Positions 4,818 through 33,941 of a stretch of DNA of 34,253 nucleotides are shown here, piece by piece (position 1 is the stretch's first letter; each line of letters begins with the position of its first letter). Origin of the DNA: Candidatus Zambryskibacteria bacterium RIFCSPLOWO2_01_FULL_35_19 (GTDB lineage: Bacteria; Patescibacteriota; Minisyncoccia; Phycocordibacterales; WO2-35-19); the NCBI GenBank assembly GCA_001825335.1, contig MHWA01000006.1, forward strand, positions 4,368 through 38,620, written 5' to 3'. The position numbers and the translations under genes are program-made. Under the pieces are notes generated by a model. That model made no database searches, was not told the origin of the DNA, and saw only the letters and a list, made by a program, of their open reading frames with translations.

Positions 4818-4894
4818 TAAAAAACAAAATAGTATTGTTTCGAGAGCATTATCCTCTGTGACCTAACGCAGAAACAATACTATTTTGTTTTTTA
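4818..4894. repeat. Long hairpin element with conserved 29-nt loop, copy A
   Basis: Perfect 24-bp IR (4818-4841/4871-4894) around GAGAGCATTATCCTCTGTGACCTAACGCA. Confidence 0.9.
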
Positions 4895-4900
4895 GATACG

Positions 4901-4979
4901 AAAATGCCACCCGAGGGTGGCGCTTTCGCAGACATTCATTTGTATGAAGAAAACTTAAATTGCTTCCTCACACTCACAT
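4901..4979 (-). ncRNA. Putative small RNA A (~79 nt)
   Basis: Near-consensus promoter TTGCGT(5013-5008)-17nt-TATACT(4990-4985) with extended TG. No ORF (ATG-TGA). Ends in GCCACC-CTCG-GGTGGC followed by ATTTT. Confidence 0.6.
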
Positions 4980-5021
4980 ATATAAGTATAGCATATTTGA
5001 CTTATTTACGCAAGTCTAGTT

Positions 5022-5102
5022 GGGGAAAAGCTCAAAAACATTGTTTCAAGAGCCTTATCCTTTGTAACCTAACGCAGAAATAATGTTTTTGAGCTTTTCC
5101 CC
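5022..5102. repeat. Long hairpin element with conserved 29-nt loop, copy B
   Basis: 26-bp IR with one G-T (5022-5047/5077-5102) around AAGAGCCTTATCCTTTGTAACCTAACGCA. Confidence 0.9.
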
Positions 5103-5107
5103 CCTTT

Positions 5108-7300
5108 TTACGGATTCCTCCCGGCTTTTATTTCATTTATATAGTATTCTCCCTGTTCCTTAAAAGTAGGATCTAAAATAATGATTTCTTCCAAAGTCTG
5201 AATAGCTTCTGTCCTTCTGTTTGCTTGCAAATAAACGGCAGTGAGAGTTATTCTGTGTTGTAAATTACTTGGGTCAAGCTCTATTCTTTTATTGACTATA
5301 TTTATTATTTCTTGATATTGACTCAATGATAGCAATATAGTCAAATACCTATCATCAAAAACCAATTTTGATTCTGGTATTTCACCTAAAATTTGCGATC
5401 CTGTGACCGTATCTCCAGAAGCAAGCAATGTCAGACCGTATATAAATTTAGCTTCTTCAAATGAAGTATCAAGTTCATAAGCAATCTTGGCCGACCCTAG
5501 AGCTTCGTTTGTTTTCCCATTAAGAAGATAGTTGCTTGTTAACTCAAAAAACATTTGTTGTTTATTTGGAGAAAGTTTTTGAGCTTCTTTCACTTGTTCT
5601 ATAGCTTTTTCATACAAACCAAATCTTGAAAGAAAAATCCCATAAAAAAGTCTGTAACGAGCGTCATCTGGAACTTTATCTAAATTCTTATTAAAAGATT
5701 TGTCTACCGCGTCAAACAATTCTTGCTTAAATTCAGTTGAAATATTTTGATTGGTCGCCATAGCAATGGCTGTTTGAGATATGTGTTCTAAACTTTCAGA
5801 AAAACCCATACCACTAGAAAGGGGCTTGGTATAAATTTTAATGTCTGCCACTTTTCCTTGATTGTTTGTTTTCAAAACTTCTAGCAAATCTTTATTTTGT
5901 TGCCAAGGCAAATAAATAACAAAATATAAAACTCCTATAATTAAAACTAATATTAAGGCCTCTATTATAGGTCTTCCTTTTTCGTTATCAAACATTTTTG
6001 TCATCTTGGCTGAAATATTATCCCACAAGGAAAGATTCATTTCTGAAGCATGCGAATGGACATAAGCCAAAATAGTAAAGAAGAGTATATAACTACTTAT
6101 CTGATCAAAAACGAAAAGATTATTAAAAAGGTAAGCAGAGACAAGCCCAAGCATTATAGCTTTTTCATTTTTAGACAAGTTTTCATTTTTAGATTTAAAG
6201 ATATAAAAAAGCAAAGCCAAAAGAATAGAAGTGTAAGAAAGAAAGCCCAAAAGTCCCCCTGCTACCAACCAATCAAGTGGGGTGCTATGAGCTCTATCAA
6301 ACCACGGCTCCTGATTATACATACGCGAATCATAATATTTATTGAAAACAAAATTAAAACCTTCTTGTCCCCAACCCAAAATTGGTTTTTCTACAAATCC
6401 TTTTATAGCCATTGGCCAAACAAAATATCTGCCTTGAGTTTTAACTTCAGAAAAAGAAAGAGAAGAGAAACGTCTTAAGACAGGACTCTCTTTAACAAAA
6501 GTGGTGTTTTTAAAAGCCAAAAATAATCCCACAAAAGCAATGAGTCCAATAAAGCCACCAAGAGCTACTTTTCTTATGCTGTCATTTTTTTCTGATTTAA
6601 ATAAAAGATATACAAAAGTGATAAAAGCACCCCCAAGAATACCCAAGATGGCTCCCCTAGTAGCGGTGAAATAAAGCACGACCAAATCCATCAAAGCAAT
6701 TATTGCCAATAAGATTTTTTGCCATTTTTGTTTAAACCTGACAAAAAGAAGAGCTGCAAAAAATATATGAAAAACCATATAAATACCAAGATAGCCCGCA
6801 TTACCTAAAGTGCCATCTACTCGAACTCCCCCCTGATTTATGGTAATCTTACCAGCCAACTGCAAGAAAGAATAAATAGCCATAATGGCAGAAGCGACTA
6901 AACTAGTCGCAAGGAGTTTATTCCACAACTCTTGAGTTTTTAAAACTGAACCCATCACTACAAAATAAGCGCCAAGATGGAGGAGAGTGATATAACCTTC
7001 CATTCTTTCATAATTACTCCAAAAAGCTTTGAAAGGGTTTTGAGCAAAAATATCAGCAAGTCCCATCACTATTAAAAATGTTAGTATTGCTCCCAATATC
7101 CAAGAAAATTTAGGCCGATAAGATTCGTCTCTTATAGCCAAAACAAGCCAAGTAGCAAAAACAATCTCAACTAAAAATCGGAAAACAAAAGCTTTGCCGG
7201 TAATAAATGGAAAAAAGAGTGATGAACTAACAATAAGTGGCACAAACGGCATCGCAAAAAGCCCAGCTAATATAATGTATTTGAGTTGACTGTTGGTCAT
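5108..7300 (-). CDS. O-antigen ligase (Wzy_C/WaaL/O-OTase) family membrane protein with C-terminal TPR-like repeats
   Basis: Many TM segments; R..GTLGN..Y, T.TRGA, P.LGWG and RAH..LD motifs; helical TPR-like C-terminal ~200 aa. Confidence 0.85.
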   Translation of the reverse strand: MTNSQLKYIILAGLFAMPFVPLIVSSSLFFPFITGKAFVFRFLVEIVFATWLVLAIRDESYRPKFSWILGAILTFLIVMGLADIFAQNPFKAFWSNYERMEGYITLLHLGAYFVVMGSVLKTQELWNKLLATSLVASAIMAIYSFLQLAGKITINQGGVRVDGTLGNAGYLGIYMVFHIFFAALLFVRFKQKWQKILLAIIALMDLVVLYFTATRGAILGILGGAFITFVYLLFKSEKNDSIRKVALGGFIGLIAFVGLFLAFKNTTFVKESPVLRRFSSLSFSEVKTQGRYFVWPMAIKGFVEKPILGWGQEGFNFVFNKYYDSRMYNQEPWFDRAHSTPLDWLVAGGLLGFLSYTSILLALLFYIFKSKNENLSKNEKAIMLGLVSAYLFNNLFVFDQISSYILFFTILAYVHSHASEMNLSLWDNISAKMTKMFDNEKGRPIIEALILVLIIGVLYFVIYLPWQQNKDLLEVLKTNNQGKVADIKIYTKPLSSGMGFSESLEHISQTAIAMATNQNISTEFKQELFDAVDKSFNKNLDKVPDDARYRLFYGIFLSRFGLYEKAIEQVKEAQKLSPNKQQMFFELTSNYLLNGKTNEALGSAKIAYELDTSFEEAKFIYGLTLLASGDTVTGSQILGEIPESKLVFDDRYLTILLSLSQYQEIINIVNKRIELDPSNLQHRITLTAVYLQANRRTEAIQTLEEIIILDPTFKEQGEYYINEIKAGRNP

Positions 7301-7385
7301 AGAGAGAAGTATATCAAATATAATAATTAAATGAATAGGTAGAAAAAATCTGTTATTTCTGGTATTGTTTTGGAATTAAAGACTT

Positions 7386-8645
7386 ATGGTAGAAAAACTA
7401 AAAAATAAAATTATCTTCCTCCTCCACTGGAGTGAGAGGTACACCAAGACCGATATGGTCTATTTATTTAAAGGTGGCTTTTGGCTTACTTTGGGACAAA
7501 TCTTTTCATCTATAGCAGCTTTTGCAGTATCAGTAGCATTTGCAAACTTTTTTCCAAAAGAAATCTTTGGAGTATATAAATATATTTTATCTATCTTTGG
7601 TATATTAGCTATTTTTAGTTTACCTGGACTATCATCAGCTCTTACAAAAGCTTTTTCTAAAGGTTTCTCTGGATCATATTTGGAAGTCTTCTATTACCGT
7701 ATTCGTTGGGCTTTATTGGGAAGTTTAGTAGCAATCATTACTTCTGGATATTACTTCTTACAAGGAAACACTGTGCTCGGTTTTTCATTCATTATAGTAG
7801 CTGCAGCTCTACCTTTTTTTGATTCTCTATCAATATATAATTCATACTTACACAGTAAAAAAAGATTTAAAGAATTTTCCTATATCAACGCAATAAATCA
7901 AATTATTCCAGCTATTGGTCTTATTATTACAATAATATTTTTCAAAAATGTTTGGTTAATATTGGGAGTATATTTTTCTTTTCATATCATCTTAAGATTT
8001 ATTTTCTTTAAAAAATTTAACAAAGAAACAACTATCAAAGAAAAAACTCCAAAAGAAGTTTTTTCTTATGGAAAACATTTAAGTCTTATGGGTGTTTTAG
8101 GTACATTATCAGCCCATATAGACAAAGTATTAGTTTTCCAACTTTTAGGAGGAACGGAGTTAGCTTTATATACTATTGCTATTGCCCCAATAGATCAAAT
8201 AAAAGGTTTTTTTAAAAATATTAGTTTTTTAGCATGGCCAAAATTTGCAGAACAATCTTTTGAAAATATCAGGGAAGTTTTGTTTGGAAAATTAAAAAAA
8301 TTTTTTGTATTTTTAACTGTAGTAATAACTATATATATTCTACTAGCACCATTTTTCTTTAATTTATTTTTTCCTACTTATACTCAATCAATAATTTACT
8401 CTCAAGTTCTTGCTATATCAGTTATATTCGCAATATTAGGAACTATACCTTACGCTTTTCTTGAATCTCATGGATCCAAAAAATCTCTTTACACATACAA
8501 CATAATTGGAAATATATTTAGTATTGCTACACTTTTAATATTAATACCTTTTTATGGCTTATGGGGAGCTATAATAGCTAGATTTACAACTAGAATTGTA
8601 AGTTATCTTCTATTAATTCTATTAATAAAAAAAGAATCTAGATAA
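7386..8645 (+). CDS. wzx: Polysaccharide flippase (Wzx/MOP family)
   Basis: 419-aa polytopic membrane protein with FG.Y, IDK.L...LG...ALY and PFYGLWGAIIA patterns; sits in a glycan locus. Confidence 0.85.
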   Translation: MVEKLKNKIIFLLHWSERYTKTDMVYLFKGGFWLTLGQIFSSIAAFAVSVAFANFFPKEIFGVYKYILSIFGILAIFSLPGLSSALTKAFSKGFSGSYLEVFYYRIRWALLGSLVAIITSGYYFLQGNTVLGFSFIIVAAALPFFDSLSIYNSYLHSKKRFKEFSYINAINQIIPAIGLIITIIFFKNVWLILGVYFSFHIILRFIFFKKFNKETTIKEKTPKEVFSYGKHLSLMGVLGTLSAHIDKVLVFQLLGGTELALYTIAIAPIDQIKGFFKNISFLAWPKFAEQSFENIREVLFGKLKKFFVFLTVVITIYILLAPFFFNLFFPTYTQSIIYSQVLAISVIFAILGTIPYAFLESHGSKKSLYTYNIIGNIFSIATLLILIPFYGLWGAIIARFTTRIVSYLLLILLIKKESR

Positions 8646-9768
8646 TCTTATTTTTAATTTCTTTAACTATATTCTGAACTCTTATTTCCCAAGAAAATTT
8701 TTGGACATATTCAAAAGCTTTTTCTATAGTTTTTAAGGAAAACTCTTTATCAGACAAAACTTTCTTTATTACTTCTACAAAAGATTCTGGATTATCAGCC
8801 TCTGCAAAAAAACAAACATCTTTATTTACAGCTTCTCTTATAGAAGGCAAATTTGATGCAACTATTGGTCTCTTTGAAGCCATATATTCAAAAAGTTTCA
8901 GAGGAGAAGTATAACTAGCTCCAATTTTTTCTTTGCCTGAATTAGGCACCACCAAAACATCCGCTGATTTAAGGTAAATTGGGACAATTTCTCTTTTTTG
9001 AAAAGGTCTTATTATTATATTTTTACTACTATATTTTTCTTTAAACTGATCAAACTCTGGTCTTACTCCACCAATAAATACAAAAGCTACTTCTGGTAAA
9101 AGTTTTGCTGCCTCTGCTAAAGTATCAGCCCCTTTCCAAGAATAGAGCTGACCACTATATAAAACTATTTCTTTCTCTAAAGGCAAACCAAGTTTTTCTC
9201 TTGCCTCATCTTTGCTTAAATCAATATCAAACTTTTTAATATCAACACCGCTAGGAGAAATAAAAATCTTTTCTGAAGAAACACCTCTATTAATCAACTC
9301 TTTCTTTAAATTGTTATTAAGAACAAAAAACAATCTTGGTTTTTTAATAACCCTTTTAAAAAGAAAGTCTGCTACTGGTATATTATGCACTTCAAAAATT
9401 ATAAAATTTTTTTTGGAGAAAAAAAGTAAAGTTAAATAATCTCTAGTATATAAAATATCATTTTTATTAATTTTTATTTTAAATTTTGATGCTACCAAAA
9501 AAGACAAAATATCTATCCAATAAAAAACTCTACCAAACTTTAATGTTTTACCTAAAAAATCAAAACTTGGTATTTTTTTAATATTAAAATTATTTTCTAT
9601 TTTATAAAAATCAAAAGGATTGTTGTCCTTTTCCATATTTTTACGATCTGGCACAAAAAGTTCTACTTTAAACCCAAGTTTAGAAAACTCGCTACACATC
9701 TTCATAATGGCATAACCCTGTGCCCTAGGGGTAGGTATACGCACATTTGTAATATATTTTATATGCAT
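8638..9768 (-). CDS. Glycosyltransferase family 4 (GT-B)
   Basis: SGVD, KGAD.L and SPLKLFEYMAS.RPIVAS motifs. Confidence 0.92.
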   Translation of the reverse strand: MHIKYITNVRIPTPRAQGYAIMKMCSEFSKLGFKVELFVPDRKNMEKDNNPFDFYKIENNFNIKKIPSFDFLGKTLKFGRVFYWIDILSFLVASKFKIKINKNDILYTRDYLTLLFFSKKNFIIFEVHNIPVADFLFKRVIKKPRLFFVLNNNLKKELINRGVSSEKIFISPSGVDIKKFDIDLSKDEAREKLGLPLEKEIVLYSGQLYSWKGADTLAEAAKLLPEVAFVFIGGVRPEFDQFKEKYSSKNIIIRPFQKREIVPIYLKSADVLVVPNSGKEKIGASYTSPLKLFEYMASKRPIVASNLPSIREAVNKDVCFFAEADNPESFVEVIKKVLSDKEFSLKTIEKAFEYVQKFSWEIRVQNIVKEIKNKII

Positions 9769-11195
9769 TATCTTTTGAATAATTTATTTTCTAGAATTTT
9801 TAATTTATTTTTGAAGTGTTCTCTATAATTTGACCATATAAAAAAAACTGATGAAAAAGCACTTATGAGCAAAAGAGGCTCTATCGGTATACGATAACGA
9901 GCATGAGCAATTGGTCCAGTAACAAGAGCAAAATACATTATAATTGCCCAAAACATTCTTATTAATCTTTTATTTTTAGAAAACCACATACCCAAAAAAG
10001 CAAAGACAGTTATAATTAACCAAAAGAAATTTTCAACTAAAGTCCAGCCGTGATTTTTAATAACTGTAATCAAAACAGGTAATGAAAATGGGTGCAATGC
10101 TTGGATAAGTGAAGGTTCCGGTTCTGGATTAAAATCTGGTTGCAAATCATTAATCAGTCTATCGTATTCATTAATTCCACTTGATGTAAAAAATGGGATA
10201 AAGGAAGTTGCGTGAAAAATAGCGTATCTAAATGGATGAGAAGTTATTACTTCAATAGCAGTCTCTTGCATTGCTTTTGAATATTTAAGATCTTGAGGTA
10301 TTGGGTATTCAGGAATACCAGCTTTTTCCAACATATCCCTTCTAGCTTGAAAAATATCTATGTTGTTTAAAGCGGCATAAAATTGAGTGGCATTTTGACG
10401 AAATAAAACATAAGGACCAGTAGAAGCAAAAGCCCAAACGTCCATCTTTATTTTATTTCTTATATACCAAGGACTTAAAGTTGCGAAAAAAACTATTATC
10501 AAAAAAATAGTAGCAAAGATATGTTGACGAGTTGTCTCCTCCTTTTTTAAATAAAAAATAAAATAAGCTGGTATAAAAAATAAAAGTATATATTGAGAAG
10601 CTGGCCTTATGTAAATAGTCAAAGCAAGGAGTAACCCCGTGAGAGCCCATTTTAAATACATATTTTTAACTTCTGAAAATAAAAATAGATACAAAGCAGA
10701 CATAGAAATAAAAACAAATAGAGTTTCATTAAAAAGAGCAGAAGCTGCAAGGAGAGTGCCTGGTAAAATGATATATAAGATAGAAGCAATCAGCGCTAAT
10801 TTATGATTTGTTAATTTATCTACTATTTTAAATATAAATAAAGAAGTTAAGAAAACTAAAAAAATATGGGCTATTAATACTGGATAAAGACTCCCAAACA
10901 AATAGTAAAAAATAGCTACGAAAAATGGATACCCGGGTGTACGCCAAGTATCAGGTTCAAATGGTGCATTTTCACTTCTTGAAAATACTTTGTTTTCAAC
11001 TAGGTTCTTAGCTAAAAATCCATTATCATAAGTAACGCCAGCAACTCCAATATTTAAAGCTGGGTATTCTTTAGCTTCTTTGGCTTCAGAATTTTTAGCA
11101 GTTAAAGATATAAAAAGGATGCTACTTCCTATCACAACAACCGATACAATAAAAATCAATATGTAAGTCCGATATTTATTACTTATATTTAGCAT
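9768..11195 (-). CDS. GT-C fold membrane glycosyltransferase (ArnT/PMT-like)
   Basis: RTPGYPFF, NETLF, IRP, PWYIRN and RYRIP motifs with multiple TM helices. Confidence 0.8.
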   Translation of the reverse strand: MLNISNKYRTYILIFIVSVVVIGSSILFISLTAKNSEAKEAKEYPALNIGVAGVTYDNGFLAKNLVENKVFSRSENAPFEPDTWRTPGYPFFVAIFYYLFGSLYPVLIAHIFLVFLTSLFIFKIVDKLTNHKLALIASILYIILPGTLLAASALFNETLFVFISMSALYLFLFSEVKNMYLKWALTGLLLALTIYIRPASQYILLFFIPAYFIFYLKKEETTRQHIFATIFLIIVFFATLSPWYIRNKIKMDVWAFASTGPYVLFRQNATQFYAALNNIDIFQARRDMLEKAGIPEYPIPQDLKYSKAMQETAIEVITSHPFRYAIFHATSFIPFFTSSGINEYDRLINDLQPDFNPEPEPSLIQALHPFSLPVLITVIKNHGWTLVENFFWLIITVFAFLGMWFSKNKRLIRMFWAIIMYFALVTGPIAHARYRIPIEPLLLISAFSSVFFIWSNYREHFKNKLKILENKLFKR

Positions 11196-11258
11196 ACACT
11201 TTTATTTATAATTCAGTTTGACGTAGTGATTATAATTCTCTAGAATAACTATCACAGT

Positions 11259-11969
11259 ATGACCAATTTTACTTATGAAATCAAGGATTTAGAAGCTATG
11301 TCAAAAGCTAATAATTACCACAACTGGGTCTTTGACGAGCTCAAGAATTTTTTGGGTGAAAAGGTAGCTGAAATAGGAGCTGGTAATGGTAATTTTTCAG
11401 CATTTCTTCTACAAAGTCCCAATATTAAAAAGCTTATTTCTGTTGAACCTGACAAAGATATCTGCATTCTCTACCAACAAAACATTTCTGACTCTAGAGC
11501 CGAAATAGTAAACGGCTTTCTAGGTGATATAAAAGATAATTATTCAAATAGTTTTAATTCCATCACTTACGTAAACGTCTTAGAACACGTAGCAGATGAT
11601 AAAAAAGAGCTTTCATATGTTTATGATTGCCTCAAAGATGAGGGGCGAATTTGTATTTTTGTACCAGCTCTACCTTTCCTTTATAGTGAACATGATAAAT
11701 CAATTGGTCATTTTAGACGCTATACCAAAAAACGACTTAGAAAACTATTGGAAGAAAGTGGTTTTGTGGTAGAAAAAATAAAATATTTTGATATTGTCGG
11801 TATTTTCACTTGGTTTATGGTATACAAAATTTTGAAAATGAAACCCAAGCCCGGAAATGTCTCTTTTTACGACAAATTAATCATCCCTATTCTTCGCACT
11901 ATAGAACAATTTATACCTCTTCCTGTAGGCAAAAGTCTTATCGCTATAGGCAAAAAGTTCAATAAATAA
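11259..11969 (+). CDS. Class I SAM-dependent methyltransferase
   Basis: EIGAGNG, NVLEHV.DD and VPA...LYS.HD...GHFRRY motifs. Confidence 0.9.
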   Translation: MTNFTYEIKDLEAMSKANNYHNWVFDELKNFLGEKVAEIGAGNGNFSAFLLQSPNIKKLISVEPDKDICILYQQNISDSRAEIVNGFLGDIKDNYSNSFNSITYVNVLEHVADDKKELSYVYDCLKDEGRICIFVPALPFLYSEHDKSIGHFRRYTKKRLRKLLEESGFVVEKIKYFDIVGIFTWFMVYKILKMKPKPGNVSFYDKLIIPILRTIEQFIPLPVGKSLIAIGKKFNK

Positions 11970-12013
11970 CCATATATTGTTTTTTTGTCAAAATACTTTA
12001 TACTACTAAAACA

Positions 12014-12511
12014 ATGATCCACAAAAAAATAAAATCCCTAGATGAACTTGCTCATATATGCGAAAAGTTACGGGCAAAAAATAAAATTATAATCCATTGT
12101 CACGGGACATTTGACCTACTTCACCCAGGACATATAAATTTATTCGAGCAAGCTCGTTCTTTGGGAGACATTGTTATTGTAACCGTCACTCCCGATATAC
12201 ATGTCCGTAAAGGACCTGGTCGTCCAGTTTACAAGGAGGAAATCAGGGTAAAATCGATTGCAGCACTTATCTATGTTGATTTTGTATCTCTTGATCGCAA
12301 CCCAGAAGCACACGAGATAATACGATTATTAAAACCTCATATATATGTAAAAAGTGAGGAATTTGCTGGTAAAGAAAAAGATCCGTCTCTTCCAATGGGA
12401 CGCGAAAAAAAGACCTTAGACGAAGTAGGAGCACGTCTTCATTTTGCAAAAGAAATACTACCTTTTCATTCTAGTCACATTATTAAAAATTATTTTACTA
12501 ATAATAATTAG
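12014..12511 (+). CDS. Nucleotidyltransferase, RfaE domain II / cytidylyltransferase family
   Basis: HGTFDLLHPGH (HxGH) and KGPGRP motifs; C-terminal HSS.II. Confidence 0.9.
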   Translation: MIHKKIKSLDELAHICEKLRAKNKIIIHCHGTFDLLHPGHINLFEQARSLGDIVIVTVTPDIHVRKGPGRPVYKEEIRVKSIAALIYVDFVSLDRNPEAHEIIRLLKPHIYVKSEEFAGKEKDPSLPMGREKKTLDEVGARLHFAKEILPFHSSHIIKNYFTNNN

Positions 12512-12523
12512 AGGGCATATTTT

Positions 12524-13258
12524 ATGAAGCCATCACTTTCGGTAGTCATACCAGTATTAAATGAAGCGGAAAATATAGGGAAAGCAGTAGAAGCTGTTTT
12601 ACGTGCTATTAATGATAGCAACATAAATCAATACGAAATTATTATTTCAGATAATGGTTCTACCGATGGAACGCGCGATGTTATTGAAGAGATGGAGAGT
12701 CATAATCCACACATAAAGCATGTTTATCCCACAGAAAACTTGGGTAGCGGTCAAGCGGTACGTGATGGTCTAAAAGTTGCCACCAGTGAATATTCTGCTT
12801 ATGTAGTCGGTGATAACGAAATGACCGAAGAAGCTCTTCACAACCTTTTTGGAGCACTTGGTAAAGCAGACATAATAAATACCTATATATCAAACCCAGA
12901 AGTACGTGCCCTCCCTCGACAAATACTTTCAGCTAACTTCGGCCGACTAATGCGATTGTTTTTTGGCGTCAAACTAAAATATTTTACTGGACCTGCCATC
13001 ATACGCACAGATTTATTCCGTGCCGCTCGTCGAAGCACTTATGGATTTGCCTTCATGGCAGAGATTCTTGTTCAAATAATAAAAGCAGGTTATTCATACT
13101 ATCAAGTACCAATGCCTCTTCAACCACGAACTTATGGCGAACCAGGAGTATATAGATTAAAAGATATGTGGCGCGTATTTAAAGCAGTCTTTTCTATGTT
13201 CTTTAACGTCCACTTTTCCGGTGCAGTTTCTAATCTACGGAATCTAAAGAAAAAATAA
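12524..13258 (+). CDS. Glycosyltransferase family 2 (polyprenol-P sugar synthase-like)
   Basis: SVVIPVLNE and DNGSTDGT motifs; the DxD position reads VGD. Confidence 0.88.
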   Translation: MKPSLSVVIPVLNEAENIGKAVEAVLRAINDSNINQYEIIISDNGSTDGTRDVIEEMESHNPHIKHVYPTENLGSGQAVRDGLKVATSEYSAYVVGDNEMTEEALHNLFGALGKADIINTYISNPEVRALPRQILSANFGRLMRLFFGVKLKYFTGPAIIRTDLFRAARRSTYGFAFMAEILVQIIKAGYSYYQVPMPLQPRTYGEPGVYRLKDMWRVFKAVFSMFFNVHFSGAVSNLRNLKKK

Positions 13259-25186: not shown

Positions 25187-25849
25187 TTATACTTTTTCAC
25201 TTATCATTAACATCTGGCCAGCCAATGGTTTTATTGGGGAGTGGATGTAGAGACGGACAAGAAGAGGCAGGATAAAATTAGGGATCAAAGAGGAGCTGTC
25301 TTTCATTTCTTGAGGTAGGAAACGCGGTTTTTTCAAAATTATTTTAAAGCCATGCGATATAAGAAAGCTCTCCAGCGAAACATCATTAAAAATCTTTTTA
25401 TGAGTATGGTCGTCAAAATATCTTGCTGGCTGGAGAGAAAAATTCGGCTGCATCAAAATCAATTTGCCACCCATCTTTAACACCCGTTTTACTTCGCCCA
25501 TCACTTTTCCTAATTCCTGATCGTCAAAATGCTCAAATAAGTTGCTAGTGTGAACAATATCGATGGAATTATCTGGGATTTGGGAGAGGTCAGAAGCCGG
25601 GCTATTGATTTTAGTAACACTCGGATTGGCAAAGTTTGAAAGTTCGGGAGAGGGATCAACCGCATATTTTTTTGCCGCTTTGACTTGATTTATAAAATCG
25701 CAATACCCCGCTCCCAAATCAACAACCGCCCCATCTTCTGGTATATATTCACTCTCAAATTTTATGATTTCCTTCCAAACCAAAATTCTCCTCCTATCAG
25801 GATCATATTGTCCAGATTTGTAATATTGATCTTGTGTTTCATTATTCAT
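25187..25849 (-). CDS. Class I SAM-dependent methyltransferase
   Basis: DLGAGY, SNLFEH and RVLK.GG motifs. Confidence 0.88.
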   Translation of the reverse strand: MNNETQDQYYKSGQYDPDRRRILVWKEIIKFESEYIPEDGAVVDLGAGYCDFINQVKAAKKYAVDPSPELSNFANPSVTKINSPASDLSQIPDNSIDIVHTSNLFEHFDDQELGKVMGEVKRVLKMGGKLILMQPNFSLQPARYFDDHTHKKIFNDVSLESFLISHGFKIILKKPRFLPQEMKDSSSLIPNFILPLLVRLYIHSPIKPLAGQMLMISEKV

Positions 25850-26562
25850 ATTTTCTTAAAAACATACTTAAATATGACAGGTATCATTTTAAAACCTAAT
25901 TTAGTAGCCCGCCAGATACTGCCTGTATACATCGATTTCCCTACTCTTTCTTTATATATCACAGGTATTTCTATGACTTTTAGATTTTGGCGCAAAATCC
26001 AAATCATTAGCTCCGGATTAAAAGTGCCATCACCTTTAGAAAGAGAGAAAAGTTCTACTATTTTATTTAATGTTTTGCGATTAATAAGTTTATAGGTGCA
26101 ACCAACATCAGTCAAAACTGGTCCATTAAATAAAACTTCCACACATTTAGCCCACAACCAATTTCCAAAACGCACTGGATACGGCATAAAAGCTCCTTCC
26201 CACATAACCTCTCTTGATGTACGAGTACCAAAAACCACGTCAAAATCTTGACTATAAGAAAGAAGTTTTTCTATATCTACTGGTCTAAAAGTGCCATCTG
26301 CTTCGGTCACCACAATCAAATCTCCTTCAGCTTCTTTCAATCCCCTCATAATAGCGTGGCCATAACCTTGATTTTCTTTTTCTTCAATATGTCGAGCCTT
26401 GGTTTTTTTTATTTCCTCTGCTGTATTACCAAGAGCATTATTATCCACTGCCACCACTTCATCGACAAAACCGGTTTCAAAAAAACCTTCTATCACACCC
26501 CTAATACTCTGGGCTTCATTATAAGTAGGAATAACTACACTTACTTTTTTATTTCTATACAT
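25846..26562 (-). CDS. Glycosyltransferase family 2 (DPM-synthase-like)
   Basis: SVVIPTYNE, VDNN, GYG.A, EADGT and LTDVGCTY motifs. Confidence 0.92.
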   Translation of the reverse strand: MYRNKKVSVVIPTYNEAQSIRGVIEGFFETGFVDEVVAVDNNALGNTAEEIKKTKARHIEEKENQGYGHAIMRGLKEAEGDLIVVTEADGTFRPVDIEKLLSYSQDFDVVFGTRTSREVMWEGAFMPYPVRFGNWLWAKCVEVLFNGPVLTDVGCTYKLINRKTLNKIVELFSLSKGDGTFNPELMIWILRQNLKVIEIPVIYKERVGKSMYTGSIWRATKLGFKMIPVIFKYVFKKI

Positions 26563-27587
26563 AACTTCTCTATTAAAGCATCCAAACTGTGATTTTCCAA
26601 GACATATTTTTGGAGTTTTTCTGAAGTATTTTTTCTCTCTTCTTCATTAATATTCATCAAAAATTCAATTCTTTCTGTTATATCTTCTGGAGTTTCTCTT
26701 TCTATTATCATTTTTTCATCAATCTCTCCCAATAATGACCTGTTAGCAACCACGAGCAAACAACCACAGGCAGCAGCCTCTAAAATAGTTTTATCAAAAC
26801 TACCACTAGGAGTTAGGTTTACAAAAATATTATGCTCATTATAAATTTTAGGAGTTTTATAATTTGGCACACCTTTATAAAGGTTAACCTTTTCACTCAA
26901 TCCAAATTCTTTGATTTTAGTTTTTATAGAATCGTAATAATCTCCAGTGTTTGGTGTCGGGTCTCCATAAAAATCACAAACGAAATCAACACCTTTTTTA
27001 TTTAAAATATCCAGTGCCTCAATTAATAGATCTGGTTTTTTTATAGAATCCATCCTCCCTAGAAATAATATTTTATTTTTTAGTATTTCGTGACTCATAT
27101 TTCGTGACTCGGTATTGAAAACACCAGTATCTATCCCTACCGGCATTAAAGTTGTTTTTTTAAATTTTGCTGTAAAAGATGTTTTTGAAGTGCAAAAAAC
27201 TTTATTAGAAAGCCAAATAGCGATACAAGTAAGTAAACCTCCTTCTGGGTGATTCCTCCAAAAATAAATCCTTTTACTCATAATCCTCCAAAAAAATCCT
27301 CCCAACAAAATATACCCTTGATTCATATGAACAAAAACTGATTGGTATTCCCTATTTAAACCAAGTATAAGATTAAAGAAATTTTTAACATATTTTATTC
27401 TGCTTCTTCCTGATTCTTTACCCAAAGAAAAAACCTTCACATTCTCTGGTAAATCATACTCACCTTTTTCTAAACAAATAACCGAAATTTTTTCAAATTT
27501 TTTTGAAAGCTCTATTACCCAATTATGAAAAAAACCAAGTGTAGGGTCTTCCTTGTCCATTTTTTGAGTTAGTATTAAAAGCTTCAT
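26541..27587 (-). CDS. Glycosyltransferase family 4
   Basis: GIDT, LGR...K and GSFDKTILEAAACG motifs. Confidence 0.9.
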   Translation of the reverse strand: MKLLILTQKMDKEDPTLGFFHNWVIELSKKFEKISVICLEKGEYDLPENVKVFSLGKESGRSRIKYVKNFFNLILGLNREYQSVFVHMNQGYILLGGFFWRIMSKRIYFWRNHPEGGLLTCIAIWLSNKVFCTSKTSFTAKFKKTTLMPVGIDTGVFNTESRNMSHEILKNKILFLGRMDSIKKPDLLIEALDILNKKGVDFVCDFYGDPTPNTGDYYDSIKTKIKEFGLSEKVNLYKGVPNYKTPKIYNEHNIFVNLTPSGSFDKTILEAAACGCLLVVANRSLLGEIDEKMIIERETPEDITERIEFLMNINEEERKNTSEKLQKYVLENHSLDALIEKLCIEIKK

Positions 27588-27591
27588 AATA

Positions 27592-29151
27592 TTATTTATT
27601 AAAAATAAAAAATTTATAAAGCAGGAAATTTTGGATCATCACAAAAAATCCAGCAATAATTTGAGCTAAAATATACCATATACCAAACACATCAACACAA
27701 ACAAACATTATAACGGTATTGGTAATAATTCCTAAAACAGCTACTATAAAAAACTTTGAAAACTGGTAATGCACACCACTGGTTTTCATATCTTTAAAAA
27801 CTACAAATTTCTGTAATGAAAAACTTACAATTAAAGAAATAACAAAAGATAGGATAGAAGAATACAAATACCAAATACCGACAATATCGGTAAATATGTA
27901 AAGCAACCCTATGTTGGTAGTTGCTGCTGTAATACCACATATAAAATAACGCACAAAAATTATTGACCGCCAAATAGTCAATTTAAAATTAATAATTCTG
28001 GAAATAAAATTTCTTTGTTTTAAATTTTCAGAAGTTTTTAAAATAGAGTCGGCATATTTTTTAAAATAATCATCTAATGTTGCCAAATGCTTTTGAGCTA
28101 CCTCTTTAGCCACTTCTCCCATTTTTTCTCTCAAGCCCTGATCTTCATAAATTTTCAAAATACTTTGAGTAAAACATTTTTCATCTTTGGCATCACAAAT
28201 AAAAGCGCTCCTTTGATCTTTTCCGCCAGAGGCGGATCCGCCTACGGCGGAAAAAACTTCTCCAGCCACACCAGTATCAGACAATATTAAAGGTAAACCA
28301 CAAGAAGCCGCCTCTATAGTTGAAACACCATAACCCTCATAAAAAGAAGTAGAAACAAAAGCATCTGCCATTTGATAATAAGGGGTCAAATTATTTTGCC
28401 AACCAGCAAAATATATTTGTTCAAAAATACCCATATTTTGAGCCATTTTTTCAAGACGATTTCTTTCCGAACCATCTCCCACCAAACAAAGTCCCATATC
28501 TTTATTATTTAAATTTTTAAGCACTTTTAAAACCATCTCTATATTTTTTTCTTTTTCCAATCGACAAACCATAATCAGCATAAAAGGAAAAAGCTTTTTT
28601 ATTTCCAAGGACTGTCCTTGGAAAATTTCCATTTTTATAGGCAAAACATCAATATTTTTAGAGTAAGATTCTATTGATTTTTTTATTCTTTCTGAAACCA
28701 CTCTTACCCTATCAGAATATTTCAAAACAAATTCAGCCATCAAAAACCTAATTTTGTTTAGCATTGACGATTCTCTAAAATACTTGTGAGCAAAATCCGT
28801 ATGCACTTGAATATGTAGTGGCAAATTATAAAAAAGTTTTATCAAAGCGCCCACGATACCCGTCTCAAACGGGTCTTGGCATGTTATAACAACATTATTT
28901 TTACCTATTTTCTTTAATATTTTTGCAATTATTTTTATAAAATCAAAAACGTAAAATGCTCTTATTTTTGATTTACTTGGATACAAAAATACGTTGCGCG
29001 AAAGAGTTTGATTTTCAAATTTTGAATCATTTGGAGTAAAAACAACCAGATGCAATTGGTCAAACATTTTTCCATATTCAATCATCCTCTGTCTGACAGC
29101 TGAGTTTTCTTCAAATATTTTTTGACCCATTCCTATAGATATGACTTTCAT
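27592..29151 (-). CDS. GT4 glycosyltransferase fused to a C-terminal GtrA-like domain
   Basis: RLEKEK and EGYG...IEAA..G motifs, then a ~125-aa four-TM domain (RYFICG...K..VF...NFLLYKFFIF). Confidence 0.85.
   Translation of the reverse strand: MKVISIGMGQKIFEENSAVRQRMIEYGKMFDQLHLVVFTPNDSKFENQTLSRNVFLYPSKSKIRAFYVFDFIKIIAKILKKIGKNNVVITCQDPFETGIVGALIKLFYNLPLHIQVHTDFAHKYFRESSMLNKIRFLMAEFVLKYSDRVRVVSERIKKSIESYSKNIDVLPIKMEIFQGQSLEIKKLFPFMLIMVCRLEKEKNIEMVLKVLKNLNNKDMGLCLVGDGSERNRLEKMAQNMGIFEQIYFAGWQNNLTPYYQMADAFVSTSFYEGYGVSTIEAASCGLPLILSDTGVAGEVFSAVGGSASGGKDQRSAFICDAKDEKCFTQSILKIYEDQGLREKMGEVAKEVAQKHLATLDDYFKKYADSILKTSENLKQRNFISRIINFKLTIWRSIIFVRYFICGITAATTNIGLLYIFTDIVGIWYLYSSILSFVISLIVSFSLQKFVVFKDMKTSGVHYQFSKFFIVAVLGIITNTVIMFVCVDVFGIWYILAQIIAGFFVMIQNFLLYKFFIFNK
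28222..28251. repeat. Tandem GC-rich palindrome inserted in frame
   Basis: TCCGCC-AGA-GGCGGA + TCCGCC-TAC-GGCGGA; encodes SAVGGSASGG inside the GT4 domain. Confidence 0.8.
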
Positions 29152-29229
29152 CCCGTTAGAAATTTAACTTTTAAAAATTTGTTATTTAATTTTAAGTATA
29201 GTGAGTATATCATGATATTTCTAACGGGA
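29151..29229. mobile_element. MITE-like element, 79 bp
   Basis: 13-bp perfect terminal IR TCCCGTTAGAAAT/ATTTCTAACGGGA flanked by TTCA direct repeats (29147-50, 29230-33). Confidence 0.6.
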
Positions 29230-30234
29230 TTCAATATTTTTATAGACTTCTATAAACTCTCCTGCTATTTCATCCCAAGTGTGAACAAAATTAAAATTTT
29301 TGACTTTTTCTTTAGCTTTTTTATAACCTTCTTCTGTTAATAATGTTAAAATAGCATCTTCTATCTCTTTTTCTTTTAGCGGATCAACAAAAGTACCAGC
29401 ATCCTTAATCTTATCGTATATTCCTACCTCTTTGGTACAAATAAAGGGTCTATTTAATCTTATGGCATCTAGTATCATATTAGGACTTATGTCCCCCAAA
29501 GAGACCAAAATTACCGCGAAACAGCCTTTCATTTTTTCCATAAATTGCATATAGGACAAATTATCTTTAAACAAAGCCACTTCTGGACTTTTTAGTTTAA
29601 TCTTATTAAAAACTGCCTCCAAAATATCAAAATTTTTCCACACCAAATTACGAGCTGAAGCCACAAATTCTTTAGATTCATAATTTTCGTTTGATTCTTT
29701 GGGTCCATAAAAATTTTCCACTATACTGGTTTTTTCTTTATTTAAAACATATGCTCTGACAAAAATATTTCTTTGCCACTCCGTAGAAAATATAATATGA
29801 GACACATTTTTTAATGTCCATTTGGTTACTAAAAATATTATTTTTTCTTTTAACGAAAAACTTTGCTTTTCTGTATTATAAAAATTTTTAAACAAAACTT
29901 TTTTATTATGCCTTTCACAATACTGTTCCCAAAGAAAATCTCCCCCGGTCCTAATAATATTTTTTTTAAAAAACAATCTAGAGGCAAAAGCCGTAGGAAA
30001 TCCAACCCCATAAGTATCTAGTGCAATCACAACATCTGCTCTAATTAATTTAGGTATTATTTTTAAAAAAAAGAAAATATGTCTTATCCCTGTTGGGATT
30101 CTGTTCTCAATAGTAAATGTTTTTACTGAAACAGAATTACCCATTTTCTCAAATGCTTCCTTCAAATTTTTAGCGTATTGAGCTGGGCCGCCAATTTTAG
30201 GTGGATATATTCCTGTAGTGATTAAAATTTTCAT
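29221..30234 (-). CDS. Glycosyltransferase family 4
   Basis: YPP.IGGPA N-terminus; DISPNMILDA variant of EX7E. Confidence 0.85.
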   Translation of the reverse strand: MKILITTGIYPPKIGGPAQYAKNLKEAFEKMGNSVSVKTFTIENRIPTGIRHIFFFLKIIPKLIRADVVIALDTYGVGFPTAFASRLFFKKNIIRTGGDFLWEQYCERHNKKVLFKNFYNTEKQSFSLKEKIIFLVTKWTLKNVSHIIFSTEWQRNIFVRAYVLNKEKTSIVENFYGPKESNENYESKEFVASARNLVWKNFDILEAVFNKIKLKSPEVALFKDNLSYMQFMEKMKGCFAVILVSLGDISPNMILDAIRLNRPFICTKEVGIYDKIKDAGTFVDPLKEKEIEDAILTLLTEEGYKKAKEKVKNFNFVHTWDEIAGEFIEVYKNIESR

Positions 30235-31460
30235 TTTATTTGATTTAGCGAAATCATGTCGTGCGATACGTCCTTTGGAGCACGATTTATATCAAATACT
30301 TCATTCATCTCTCTTGCTATCAAATCCCAATCATATTTTTCTTTTACCATATTATATGCATTTTCTACAACAGAATTTTTCTGTAAATCACCCATCACTC
30401 TTTTTACGGCTTCAGCAATACTTTCTGGATTTTCGGGCTGACAAAAATATCCAGTTTGATTATCTGTGTCATCCTCAAAAAACGGGTCATGTAAAAAATC
30501 AACAATACCCCCAACCGGTGTAGCAATAACGGGCAATTTACAAGCCATAGCTTCAAGAAAAGATATACCTTGTCCTTCTGACCGCGAGGTTCTAATAAAA
30601 ATATCTGATGCTTTTAAATATTTGTTCAACACCGGGTGTTCAACAAAACCTTTAAAAATAATTCTGTTTGAAACATTTAATTTTATAGCCAATTCTTTTA
30701 ACTCTTTTTCCAAATAACCTTCTCCCAAAATAACAAACTTAATATTTTTTGGTAATTTTGGTAAAGCTTTAATAACATCCCCCACTCCGTTTTTTAAAAC
30801 CAGCCGAGAAGTAGTGATCAATCCAATATCTTTTTCTTCTAATCCAATTTCTTTTCTAATCTTCTGCCTCTCCTCTTTTGAAAATTGAGAATTAAAAATT
30901 GAAAATTTTTCAATATCTACCCCATTTGGAATTATTTTTATATCCCCTTTATATCCAAATTTTTTTGCCCTTTCGGCCAAATAAGAACTGATTGCTACTA
31001 CCAAACTTGACCTCTTCAGAGCAAGTTTCCAAGAGAGGTTTATCAAACCAAACCACCTATTTTGAAAATGCTCTTCCGAATCGCCTTCCTGTAAATTTAA
31101 AATTATTGGAACTTTTTTGCTACTTATAATATTGGAGATATAAGCTGCCCCACTGGCAAAAGTAACCATCACGCAAAAATAATATTTGTAATTATTTTTA
31201 TTATTAAGAGAAATAGTTTTGATAGCACCCCAAAAAGGTAGTAGCAATTTATCTAAAGTTTTAAAACCAAAACCAACACGATAAACATTTACATTTCCAA
31301 TTTTTTCATTTTTAGGCAATTTAAAGTCAAATCTGCTAGTTATGATGTCAAAATCTACTCCAGAAATTCTATCCGTAATTTCTTTGATAGCCACCTCTGC
31401 CCCACCTACAAAAGGCAAATAAGAGGTAGAGAATATGAGTATTTTATTGGAATTTTCCAC
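30231..31460 (-). CDS. Glycosyltransferase family 4
   Basis: YLP.VGGAE, IPNGVD, SRLV.KNG and SEGQGISFLEAMA motifs. Confidence 0.93.
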   Translation of the reverse strand: MENSNKILIFSTSYLPFVGGAEVAIKEITDRISGVDFDIITSRFDFKLPKNEKIGNVNVYRVGFGFKTLDKLLLPFWGAIKTISLNNKNNYKYYFCVMVTFASGAAYISNIISSKKVPIILNLQEGDSEEHFQNRWFGLINLSWKLALKRSSLVVAISSYLAERAKKFGYKGDIKIIPNGVDIEKFSIFNSQFSKEERQKIRKEIGLEEKDIGLITTSRLVLKNGVGDVIKALPKLPKNIKFVILGEGYLEKELKELAIKLNVSNRIIFKGFVEHPVLNKYLKASDIFIRTSRSEGQGISFLEAMACKLPVIATPVGGIVDFLHDPFFEDDTDNQTGYFCQPENPESIAEAVKRVMGDLQKNSVVENAYNMVKEKYDWDLIAREMNEVFDINRAPKDVSHDMISLNQIK

Positions 31461-31505
31461 CTCTTTATAGTATCAAAAATCCTTATTTTTAACCACATTG
31501 TTGAA

Positions 31506-31757
31506 CTATTTTTTATAATGATTTGTTATTTGAAAGACTTCAATTATTTCTCCCTTAGCAACAAAACACAGAGCACGATACTTTTTATCAATACGAAAAG
31601 AAAAAATCCCTCTCCATTTGGGTTGTAATAATTCAAACTTGATAGATGGGTGCCTATGATCTTGAACAAATAAAGTTGATACCTTGACCCATTTGCGTAT
31701 TAAATTACGTTTCTTAAGATATAAAAGAAGGTCAGCTCTCAATGGTTTGAGCAACAT
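31506..31757 (-). CDS. RelE/ParE/HigB-like toxin
   Basis: 83 aa, basic, HPS..F..L...G.FSFRI..KYR and C-terminal NHY pattern of RelE-superfamily toxins. Confidence 0.7.
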   Translation of the reverse strand: MLLKPLRADLLLYLKKRNLIRKWVKVSTLFVQDHRHPSIKFELLQPKWRGIFSFRIDKKYRALCFVAKGEIIEVFQITNHYKK

Positions 31758-31759
31758 GA

Positions 31760-31969
31760 TTATTTACCATAAGAAGATTTTCGTAAACCATTTTCTAAAT
31801 CAGATAAAAAATTCTTTGTATACAAACCAGTTTTTTTAAAATCAATTATTACATCTTCTATTGAATCCTTTACAATAGCAGCAAAAAGTCTGCCAGCTAT
31901 TTTTTTATAAGCTTGCGATTGTTTTTTTAGTTGACTATATTCTTTTTTAGGAATTGTTATTTGACTCAT
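31760..31969 (-). CDS. Putative antitoxin
   Basis: 69-aa ORF (ITIPKKEY..L) ending 2 nt before the toxin, with its own -10 element. Confidence 0.55.
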   Translation of the reverse strand: MSQITIPKKEYSQLKKQSQAYKKIAGRLFAAIVKDSIEDVIIDFKKTGLYTKNFLSDLENGLRKSSYGK

Positions 31970-31990
31970 ATTTTATATCATATCATAAAA

Positions 31991-33835
31991 TTACTCTCCT
32001 TTCAATATCTTTCGGAGAACATCTTCTGGCACTTCGTTAGGAAGCTTAGAGGTTGGAGGTTGGAGGTTGGAGGATTTAGTTTTTTCTTTTGTTTTAGGTT
32101 CAATATCTCGTTTTTGAATATCTTCTTCTTTACTCTTCCTTACTACTGGCTGCTGACTACTTACTACTTGCTGGCTTTTAGCTTTTTGAATTGCCTCTTT
32201 TAAGGCGCTTATATTTTGAGGAGAAGGAGTTTTATTCCTATCTTTCTCTTTACGTCTTAATTCATCAAGCGAAATTGGTTTTACTTCTGATTTAATATTA
32301 TTAAAATTTACAGTTTTTATTATTTCTTTTTTTGGTTCCTGTTTTTTCCATAATTCTTTTTTTTCTTTTACTGCCTCCCCTATTGCTTTAGCTAAATTAT
32401 TTTCCTCTTTTTTTGTTTCTTCTTTTTTAAATTGAGACTCTTTTTTAATTTCTATTTGCTCAAATCTTGGCTTTTGTTTAGGTTGTTCAATTTTTGTTTT
32501 CACTTTTGGTTCTATATATTTGGGACTACTAGCTACTATTTTTTGTTCAGGCATATGCCATTCTTTCACTTCTTTTTCTACTTCTTCTTTAGAACGAGTA
32601 TAATTTTTCCTAGACATTTTTAAAGCTTCATTTCTAAAAGAAATTTCAGGTTTTGGAAACGGTGGCAAAGTGGTGGCCGAAAACGGCTGACTAGCTACTC
32701 CGTCTATCATCAATTTCAAATAAATTTGAACAAATCCCAAATTAACAATATCTTCCATAGTAAACACTGGAGCAAATTCCTTTTCTAAAATTTCAGCATC
32801 AAATGAGCCAACTCGAAAAGAAATCATAGTGCCGACGTTCCCAAAAACTGCCGCCCTTACCTCTTCGGCCATTTGTTCTATATATTGATGAGTTATATTT
32901 AAACTTAATTTATATTTTCTAGCTTCAGACAAAATATCGGCAAAACTTTTGTTAGCAAAAGATTGAAACTCATCTACGTAAAGATAAAAGTTAGGAAGTT
33001 TTTTGAGCTCTTTTGGATCAGCGTCCGCTCGTGACATAGCCGCAAGATATATTTTAGTTACAATCATTGAACCCAAAAGATTGGCGTTATTCTCTCCCAC
33101 CAAACCTTTTGATAAATTCACAATAAAAATCTTTTTTTTATCCATTATTTCTCTAATATCAAAGGTAGATTTAGATTGACCAACAATATTTCTTATGAGC
33201 GGATTAGAGACAAATTGTCCAACCTTGTTTTGAATGGCCGGCGTGGCTTCAGCTGCATATTTATCAGTATATTTGGCAAATTCATCAGTCCAAAAAGCTT
33301 TTGTTGTGGGGTCTTTAACATTGTCTACTACTTTATTACGATAAAGTTTATCGGTAAGCATTCTGTTTATACTAAGCATTGTTGCTCCCGGATATTCAAG
33401 TAGAGCTGCCAAAGTATTTTGTAAAATGTAAGCCATCCTAGAAGACCATTGGTCCTCCCATATTTTTTCAAACGCACTCATAAGCCCCGATACTACCAAG
33501 TGCCTTCTCTCTGGCCCAACATCTTCCATAACATTAAAAGAGATTGGATATTCTGTATCAAAAGGAGCAAAATAGATAACGTCTTTGAGGCGATGCTCTG
33601 GTATATAGTCGAGCAATAAATCAGCCGTCTTACCATGCGGATCAAGAAAGGCCATTCCTTCTCCATTTTGGATATCTTGAATGGCCATATTTTCTAACAT
33701 AGTTGATTTACCCATACCAGTCTTACCGATAGAATAAATATGACGGAGCCGATCTTCGGCTTTAATACCAAACTTTACCCTTTTGTTTCTAGCATCTGTT
33801 TCTGCGAAATATGTAATAGAGTTATTATCCATCAT
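31991..33835 (-). CDS. TraG/VirD4/HerA-like P-loop ATPase with low-complexity C-terminal tail
   Basis: Walker A GKTGMGKS, DPHG, Walker B LYVDEFQ, LSEARKY and HQY..Q motifs; K/E/Q/P-rich last ~190 aa. Start is probably ATG 33835 or 33832. Confidence 0.88.
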   Translation of the reverse strand: MMDNNSITYFAETDARNKRVKFGIKAEDRLRHIYSIGKTGMGKSTMLENMAIQDIQNGEGMAFLDPHGKTADLLLDYIPEHRLKDVIYFAPFDTEYPISFNVMEDVGPERRHLVVSGLMSAFEKIWEDQWSSRMAYILQNTLAALLEYPGATMLSINRMLTDKLYRNKVVDNVKDPTTKAFWTDEFAKYTDKYAAEATPAIQNKVGQFVSNPLIRNIVGQSKSTFDIREIMDKKKIFIVNLSKGLVGENNANLLGSMIVTKIYLAAMSRADADPKELKKLPNFYLYVDEFQSFANKSFADILSEARKYKLSLNITHQYIEQMAEEVRAAVFGNVGTMISFRVGSFDAEILEKEFAPVFTMEDIVNLGFVQIYLKLMIDGVASQPFSATTLPPFPKPEISFRNEALKMSRKNYTRSKEEVEKEVKEWHMPEQKIVASSPKYIEPKVKTKIEQPKQKPRFEQIEIKKESQFKKEETKKEENNLAKAIGEAVKEKKELWKKQEPKKEIIKTVNFNNIKSEVKPISLDELRRKEKDRNKTPSPQNISALKEAIQKAKSQQVVSSQQPVVRKSKEEDIQKRDIEPKTKEKTKSSNLQPPTSKLPNEVPEDVLRKILKGE

Positions 33836-33854
33836 CAAATATTATAACATTCTT

Positions 33855-33941
33855 GCAAATAAAAATCAGAAAACAACTTTGCCAAGAGCCCAAACCTTTA
33901 TGACCTAACGCAGGCAAAGTTCGTTTTTGATTTTTATTTGC
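33855..33941. repeat. Long hairpin element with conserved 29-nt loop, copy C
   Basis: 29-nt arms (33855-33883/33913-33941; 28 bp plus one bulged base per arm) around AAGAGCCCAAACCTTTATGACCTAACGCA. Confidence 0.9.

Follow-up and report, generated by a model that had tools for sequence, protein, structure and literature searches.

What are the hairpins that recur in a 34,253-nucleotide stretch of the genome of Candidatus Zambryskibacteria bacterium RIFCSPLOWO2_01_FULL_35_19 (contig MHWA01000006.1, positions 4,368 to 38,620; this whole stretch is referred to here as the window), and how did they come to lie where they do? Three long hairpins are present, with closely similar loops and dissimilar stems. 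We propose that each is probably a copy of a selfish palindromic DNA element, one which is non-autonomous and spreads both within genomes and from one genome to another in some Patescibacteria (Paceibacteria-type members of the Candidate Phyla Radiation, CPR), and whose nearest analogues appear to be the Rickettsia palindromic elements (RPEs) and repeats of the miniature inverted-repeat transposable element (MITE) and repetitive extragenic palindrome (REP) types.

The three copies share one orientation, which we define by the strand carrying the loop sequence AGAGC..ACCTAACGCA, and which is the plus strand of the window. Copy A occupies positions 4818–4894, with its 5′ arm at 4818–4841, its loop at 4842–4870 (GAGAGC..ACCTAACGCA) and its 3′ arm at 4871–4894; the arms are 24 nt long and the stem is perfect, without a bulge. 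Copy B (5022–5102; 5′ arm 5022–5047, loop 5048–5076, 3′ arm 5077–5102) has a stem of 26 pairs, one of which is G.T, and copy C (33855–33941; 5′ arm 33855–33883, loop 33884–33912, 3′ arm 33913–33941) has 29-nt arms with a single bulged base in the 3′ arm beyond a 9-bp inner stem. The initial annotation of this DNA had placed the three hairpins at these positions, and its description of their loops is confirmed: each is 29 nt long and closed by a C-G pair, with 21 of the 29 positions identical among the three copies. The stems are long, A/T-rich, and unlike in sequence. The pattern AGAGC-N10-16-ACCTAACGCA matches the window three times, always on the plus strand, and matches none of 100 shuffled sequences. 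Folding is likewise far stronger than in shuffles, with z-scores of −6.2 to −9.3 (as RNA or DNA, on either strand; copy A reaches −8.4 as RNA and −9.3 as DNA, and copy B −9.3 as RNA) that none of 200 shuffles equalled. A covariance model of the family scores copies A, B and C at 91.4 bits (L003:1464–1564), 92.3 bits (L003:1670–1770) and 87.1 bits (L005), respectively.

The hairpins are members of a dispersed family with a conserved loop and differing stems, as had been proposed from these three alone. The genome that contains the window (designated G000 in our comparison of its genus, and the source of contigs C1, C4, C5, C6, C7, C9 and C14 cited below) is an assembly of 510 kb in 20 contigs, with ~35% G+C and rated 91% complete. 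An exact pattern has eight matches in this genome and its reversed control has none, and the covariance model, which was built from 32 copies, finds 16 places. Matches to the model are present in seven of the 17 genomes of the genus, so that further copies clearly exist beyond the window's own genome; the exact pattern is absent from the 24 nearest-relative genomes outside the genus, and the model, applied with stricter filters, finds no copy in 150 other genomes sampled from the order. A stricter pattern recovers 32 stretches in 16 named Patescibacteria assemblies (labelled Candidatus Nomurabacteria, Zambryskibacteria, Paceibacteria/Paceibacterota, 'Patescibacteria group', and, in third-party annotations, Saccharibacteria) together with 71 metagenome stretches, and there are no pattern matches in viral contigs. 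Pooling the covariance-model matches gives 104 different 100-nt copies; because the pattern retrieval demanded much of the loop, loop conservation in this pool is partly by construction. The copies are dispersed and not arranged in arrays, and their spacing along the G000 contigs is irregular, with six copies in 17 kb of contig C4 and none in the adjoining 70 kb. Rfam yields no match at gathering scores anywhere in the window, and in E-value mode the segment 4150–5150 yields generic microRNA-type hairpin matches far below threshold, the best at 29.8 bits compared to the 80 required. No description of such an element was found in the literature searched (supplements excluded), and the word Patescibacteria is absent from the literature searched on REPINs and REP-associated tyrosine transposases (RAYTs). 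The hairpin family is undescribed so far in the literature and Rfam searched, in keeping with the earlier statement that no described family matches it.

The anatomy of the hairpin is conserved in an unusual arrangement. The element is ~75–90 bp long, with a loop that is nearly invariant across genera but for a variable patch of 3–5 nt, and with an A-rich 5′ arm, a T-rich 3′ arm, and outer arm parts that differ between copies. The loop length of 29 nt, which had been thought fixed, is a property of copies A, B and C; among 102 measured copies, 80 have a loop of 28 nt, 20 one of 29 nt, and two one of 26 nt. The stems covary: in 63 distinct rows of an alignment fitted to the covariance model, 96.6% of cells are paired compared to 65.4% after shuffling and 45–62% in slid controls, with changes on both sides in 21 of the 22 stem pairs, and an independent MAFFT/RNAalifold run reports compensatory changes in 19 of 22. 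A 1-nt bulge at position 10 of the 3′ arm, immediately after the 9-bp inner stem, is present in 34 of 59 copies and is never seen in the 5′ arm; the bulged base is G in 21, T in nine, and C in four, and occurs across subfamilies with unrelated stem sequences. When mismatches are read in motif orientation, those of the G.T type outnumber A.C (70 vs 46) and G.A outnumbers C.T (35 vs 12), and one subfamily keeps a tandem G.A/A.G in its outer stem; these features mildly favour the motif strand as the folding strand. No structure is evident inside the loop, which RNAalifold leaves unpaired; single-sequence folds of it are weak and inconsistent, and its variation is too low for a covariation test. 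The layout is, as first remarked, the reverse of REP and MITE logic: the arms vary, the centre is nearly invariant, and there are no conserved terminal inverted repeats.

Comparison of orthologous sites among the genomes of the genus shows presence, absence and replacement of copies. Empty-site alleles, which the initial annotation had considered worth recording, are found at the copy C site: it is filled in G000, contains a decayed copy in G009 (54.9 bits) and a copy with a different stem nested in another palindrome in G014, and is empty in G005, G007 and G015, with unrelated palindromes at the site in seven other genomes. Among these orthologues (loci L059–L071) we note other palindromic families, such as AACTCATCC...GGATGAGTT units around a pair of short hairpins, and also G+C-rich units. 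One copy on contig C4 precisely separates two genes that overlap (TGATG) in G014 and abut (TAAATG) in G013, and a second C4 copy is missing from G014, G013 and G005. A HIT-family gene has a subfamily copy (96% identical over 73 nt) on its upstream side in G000 and G014 and on its downstream side in G013; the G005 site is empty. The site following the TatD gene is occupied in G000, G012 and G009, with stems that differ and with the opposite orientation in G009; we read this pattern as a favoured site used repeatedly, and not as inheritance. The closest relative, G009, is too fragmented to provide filled and empty pairs at six of the C4 copies.

Copies are also found within coding genes. Six of the 104 lie in long open reading frames (ORFs), all read from the non-motif strand and in a single shared frame that encodes ..SALGHKDKALE..; the host genes of in-frame copies are those for TatD, PolA (DNA polymerase I, in two genomes), an RNase R-like protein, and an RseP-like protease. 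The in-frame copies of G000 are at C7:21050–21125 in TatD and at C9:100–179 in RseP, the latter being a contig-end copy beyond the six of 104. The RseP-like gene (C9:3–413) runs off the contig start and its frame continues on C5:14989–15789, and contigs C9 and C5 therefore abut. At the insertion spot the TatD orthologues have 14 to 55 residues, some of them derived from other palindrome families. Among the TatD genes of G007, G011 and G009, such other families are likewise read in frame.

A selfish element is a probable explanation for these patterns, because the family is multi-copy and patchy, with filled and empty orthologous sites and one nested copy, and because near-identical subfamily copies occupy different positions and insertions occur both between coupled genes and in frame in housekeeping genes. 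RPEs, in the portions of the source drawn on here, are described as both intergenic and in frame in unrelated housekeeping genes, to which they add a conserved peptide, and as having no known transposase (PMC10969869). By the same partial description the hairpin family resembles them in being a short palindromic repeat of reduced genomes, intergenic and in-frame, with one conserved peptide and without a known transposase, a likeness of description. The hairpin element is ~80 bp rather than ~150 bp long, it occurs in a different phylum, and ~6% of its copies (6/104) are in genes as opposed to nearly half of RPEs in the sections of that source used here (PMC10969869). Its conserved loop and fixed bulge may set it further apart from RPEs. 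MITEs such as Correia and the pneumococcal SPRITE are, in those same sections, small, multi-copy and mostly intergenic, form transcript hairpins, can nest, and can resemble rho-independent terminators (PMC10969869). The hairpin family is similarly small, multi-copy and mostly intergenic, with nesting in G014, so far as the partial account of those elements allows the comparison, but it lacks the conserved terminal inverted repeats, clear target-site duplication, and, in G000, the parent insertion sequence or half-sites of a MITE.

The anatomy suggests how such an element could be propagated. It would move as a folded single strand, most likely of DNA, with a cis signal made up of the conserved 28–29-nt loop, the bulge of 1 nt and the inner stem of 9 bp, and this signal would be read by a structure-specific enzyme supplied in trans. 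A conserved loop on arms that need only to pair would be accounted for if loop, inner stem and bulge are the enzyme's signal. The combination of conserved loop, free arms and fixed bulge, inverted relative to known repeats, thus points to recognition of a presented single strand.

The positions of the copies relative to genes raise a different explanation, in which the hairpin is a host-selected RNA element of mRNA 3′ ends, leaders and spacers, with a protein-binding loop and a role in termination, double-strand RNase processing or transcript stabilisation, and its spread is secondary. We regard this as unlikely, yet it has several points in its favour. Most copies lie between a stop codon and the next promoter, and where a stop codon lies within 60 nt of a copy (n=104), its median distance to the stem is 3 nt. 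The A-rich 5′ arm and T-rich 3′ arm are like those of a bidirectional terminator, the motif-orientation mismatches counted above correspond to 70 G.U-type pairs and 46 A.C, and the loop is nearly invariant across genera, though retrieval demanded much of it. In the window, the reported placement near the ends of minus-strand genes or small RNAs and next to promoters is upheld: copy B ends 5 nt from the stop of a minus-strand ORF (5108–7300), and copy C ends 4 nt from the stop of 33946–34251(−), between that stop and the start of the ORF at 31991–33838(−). Copy A follows, by 11 nt in the minus direction, a G+C-rich terminator-like hairpin with a T-tail on the minus strand at 4906–4921, and is itself directly followed by a minus-strand promoter-like site (TTGAAA-16-TATTAT, 4784–4811; a consensus match only, at 10 of 12 positions), both of these features being outside the element. 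Because a separate terminator-like hairpin precedes it, copy A is not needed to end the upstream minus-strand transcript, and this counts against the RNA explanation. A consensus scan finds no promoter within copies A, B or C, and a terminator scan predicts no terminator at any of the three.

Orientation provides a further argument. In 48 stop-adjacent copies the gene concerned lies opposite the motif, and in 28 it lies on the motif strand, so that the loop would be transcribed in one orientation in the former and as its reverse complement in the latter, whereas a sequence-specific RNA loop should be strictly oriented; nine copies lie between convergent genes, and gene starts within 60 nt are found opposite the motif for 45 copies and on the motif strand for 18. 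The window does show the uniform orientation to adjacent genes that had been reported, and family-wide orientation relative to transcription is a bias and not a rule. The strand favoured by the G.U and G.A counts is, moreover, usually antisense to genes. Some copies are also in positions where an efficient terminator would be harmful, including between coupled genes and inside ORFs: a copy lies between rplJ and rplL, and in three genomes one is upstream of dnaK and downstream of a good promoter, in the leader. Another copy is found between infB and rbfA. The dnaK-leader, rplJ-rplL and infB-rbfA copies cannot be transcript ends. Together with the absence of the family from 10 of the 17 genus genomes and the lack of an Rfam match, these placements disfavour the earlier suggestion of a new 3′-end RNA motif. 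They agree with the companion claim that the hairpin is no plain terminator, and an intrinsic terminator was rejected as a candidate given the 28–29-nt loop, the lack of a predicted terminator at A, B and C, and the copies in operons, leaders and ORFs. Some intergenic copies of the proposed selfish element probably do act secondarily as transcript-end or insulating hairpins, as their location between a stop codon and the next promoter suggests.

Regional strand composition gives a second view of orientation. The motif is on the C-rich strand in all 16 G000 copies, in 66 of the 86 copies of the family that have 2.5 kb or more of context, and in 55 of 68 where the absolute skew is at least 0.05, although GC skew and gene strand are confounded in these counts, which also include near-duplicate loci. 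Two of the G000 copies follow the regional strand against the local gene orientation, and regional strand asymmetry is a somewhat better predictor of motif orientation than transcription is. A strand bias of this kind is a trait of single-strand transposons. Another possibility is that the hairpin is a host site, acting as single-stranded DNA or as a cruciform in priming, recombination, DNA uptake, nucleoid organisation or some other chromosomal process, and the agreement in 16 of 16 and 55 of 68 copies, including the two that follow the region against the local gene, is what speaks for this possibility. We consider it very improbable, since an element absent from 10 of 17 congeners and from all 150 sampled genomes of the order cannot serve a core function; the copies furthermore decay, are irregularly spaced along contigs and occur inside genes, and skew is confounded with gene strand.

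Several observations weigh against a selfish element. First, no half-sites, copies split around a gene, or autonomous parent were found in G000, and no clean excision joint at copy A or B is among the joints listed for the reads of four DNA runs, many of these joints deriving from other organisms. (At 5063/5064 the loop of copy B does vary in length by 1 nt among the reads, which may be cross-mapping from other copies.) Secondly, direct repeats flanking 103 copies give no clear target duplication: those of 3 nt number 27 compared to a control mean of 17.3 and maximum of 29, those of 4 nt number five compared to 6.0, and those of 2 nt number 77 compared to 46.9, a figure that the definition of the stem ends biases. 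Thirdly, conservation of the loop across genera while the arms diverge could also result from host-level selection on a functional loop, and compensatory changes in the arms could come from template switching in palindromes. Fourthly, all of the genomes are metagenome bins, and some of the site differences may reflect assembly. Lastly, no transposase linked to the element was found: the flanking genes are unrelated housekeeping genes with no transposase among them, no neighbouring gene recurs across the flanks, and the individual enzyme families considered below have provided no partner.

The most obvious of these families is that of the HUH-type Y1 transposases, and a special case of the selfish element would be a REPIN- or REP-like population mobilised in trans by a RAYT-like HUH tyrosine transposase. 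Y1 genes are present in all 17 genomes of the genus, from one to 10 in each and in shared orthologous groups, and G000 has three RAYT-like Y1_Tnp genes above the Pfam cut-off (C1:21155–21421, C14:6511–6750 and C7:35337–35528; loci L187, L188 and L189). In NCBIfam they match the REP-associated tyrosine transposase model best, but at 54, 51 and 29 bits they are below its 80-bit cut-off. An extrahelical base, the lack of target duplication and a strand bias are traits of HUH single-strand substrates, and the hairpin has a bulge, a strand preference and no clear duplication. Nevertheless we think this version doubtful, and rather improbable as a specific account. Each of the G000 RAYT-like genes is flanked by its own, different, short palindrome with a G+C core, as in a classic REP/RAYT unit, and the covariance model finds no hairpin copy in the 71 Y1 and RAYT-like loci of the genus. 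In a tree of 67 of the 71 Y1 proteins (four short ones were dropped) no clade matches the seven positive genomes, with 25 label changes compared to a shuffled mean of 22.7, and G013 has ~12 copies and only two Y1 genes, both with orthologues in negative genomes. In the parts of the source considered here, REPINs are extragenic palindromes that form long hairpins with conserved REP arms and a less conserved spacer, and the RAYT gene is flanked by REPs (PMC3337134); the hairpin family shows the reverse, with variable arms and a conserved centre, and it flanks no Y1 gene. The resemblance, within the same partial description, is in long hairpins, covarying arms, A/T runs at the ends, a non-autonomous character, and the presence of RAYT-like genes in the same genomes. 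We note separately that one RAYT-flanking palindrome (CCAAGG-N5-CCTTGG) recurs at positions 28605–28621 of the window and on three other contigs.

Two other candidate mobilisers were rejected. A reverse transcriptase (RVT_1) is encoded in 13 of the 17 genus genomes and is missing from the positive genomes G014 and G005, and TnpB is absent from G000, an assembly that is 91% complete. Two RVT_1 genes are present in G000, at C6:3492–4106, just before the start of the window, and at C4:58543–59142, scoring 90 and 93 bits in ORFs of 333 and 360 aa. The initial suggestion of a single-stranded motif displayed by the stem to a nucleic-acid enzyme survives in part: it is the most economical reading of the anatomy, and neither a recombinase, nor an HUH nuclease, nor a primase has been tied to the element, the RAYT-like HUH genes of G000 having palindromes of their own.

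Other systems in which folded single strands are recognised provide a useful contrast. The ends of IS200/IS605-type elements and integron attC sites are recognised in a folded, single-stranded form that has extrahelical bases, and both have a replication-related strand bias; attC sites have a variable centre and conserved ends. The hairpin family shares the bulge and the strand bias. It differs from IS200/IS605 elements in being a single hairpin rather than two different ends and in lacking an adjacent TnpA or TnpB, and from attC in its reversed layout, with the centre conserved, and in its dispersed copies, which are not in cassette arrays (an integron integrase was not searched for). It is conceivable, and we raise it tentatively, that the proposed selfish element represents a new, structure-defined class of mobile element, in which a conserved loop and a fixed bulge are the sole cis requirements and movement as a single-stranded nucleic acid is carried out by an enzyme not yet recognised as a transposase. 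The mover might in that case be a diverged HUH protein acting in trans.

The regions around copies A and B contain other small features. On the minus strand between B and A (4900–5010) there is, by eye, a promoter-like sequence (TTGCGT-17-TATACT) followed by ~80 nt whose end is the terminator-like hairpin at 4921–4906; this unit has a fold z-score of −4.3 and no Rfam match, and could be a small RNA or a 15-codon ORF. Beyond copy A, the minus-strand segment 4655–4811 begins with the promoter-like site at 4811→4784 and continues with a long, imperfect hairpin of ~85 nt and then a terminator-like hairpin; with a minimum free energy of −49.8 kcal/mol, a z-score of −6.8 and no Rfam match at E-values up to 10, it is a candidate small RNA. 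Further along the same strand (4278–4382) a 34-codon ORF, with a T-tailed hairpin after it, encodes a very lysine-rich peptide (MAAKRKKAAKKKPAKRK...), which may be a small basic nucleic-acid-binding protein. In many genes an extended −10 box (TGNTATAAT) is located 5–8 nt before the ATG and there is no Shine-Dalgarno-like sequence (e.g. window positions 33838–33855, and loci L027 and L057–L071). These boxes were judged by eye, and they suggest that leaderless mRNAs are common in the lineage of the window's genome.

The genomes of CPR/Patescibacteria, which include some of the smallest known, are usually viewed as stripped of mobile DNA. Here a single 510-kb genome contains 16 hairpin copies as well as REP-like palindromes at three RAYT-like genes, and its relatives contain further palindrome families. 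As a probable selfish element, the hairpin would provide an independent, non-rickettsial case of selfish DNA within protein-coding genes (TatD, RseP, PolA and RNase R-like) whose frame is left unbroken. Such repeats can break assemblies and mislead gene calling and the prediction of terminators and small RNAs in CPR bins. The hairpin also offers a defined substrate of ~80 nt with which to find the responsible enzyme, and if the tentative proposal of a structure-defined mobile class is true, that class would be able to colonise even CPR genomes of ~0.5 Mb and to remodel essential proteins in frame.

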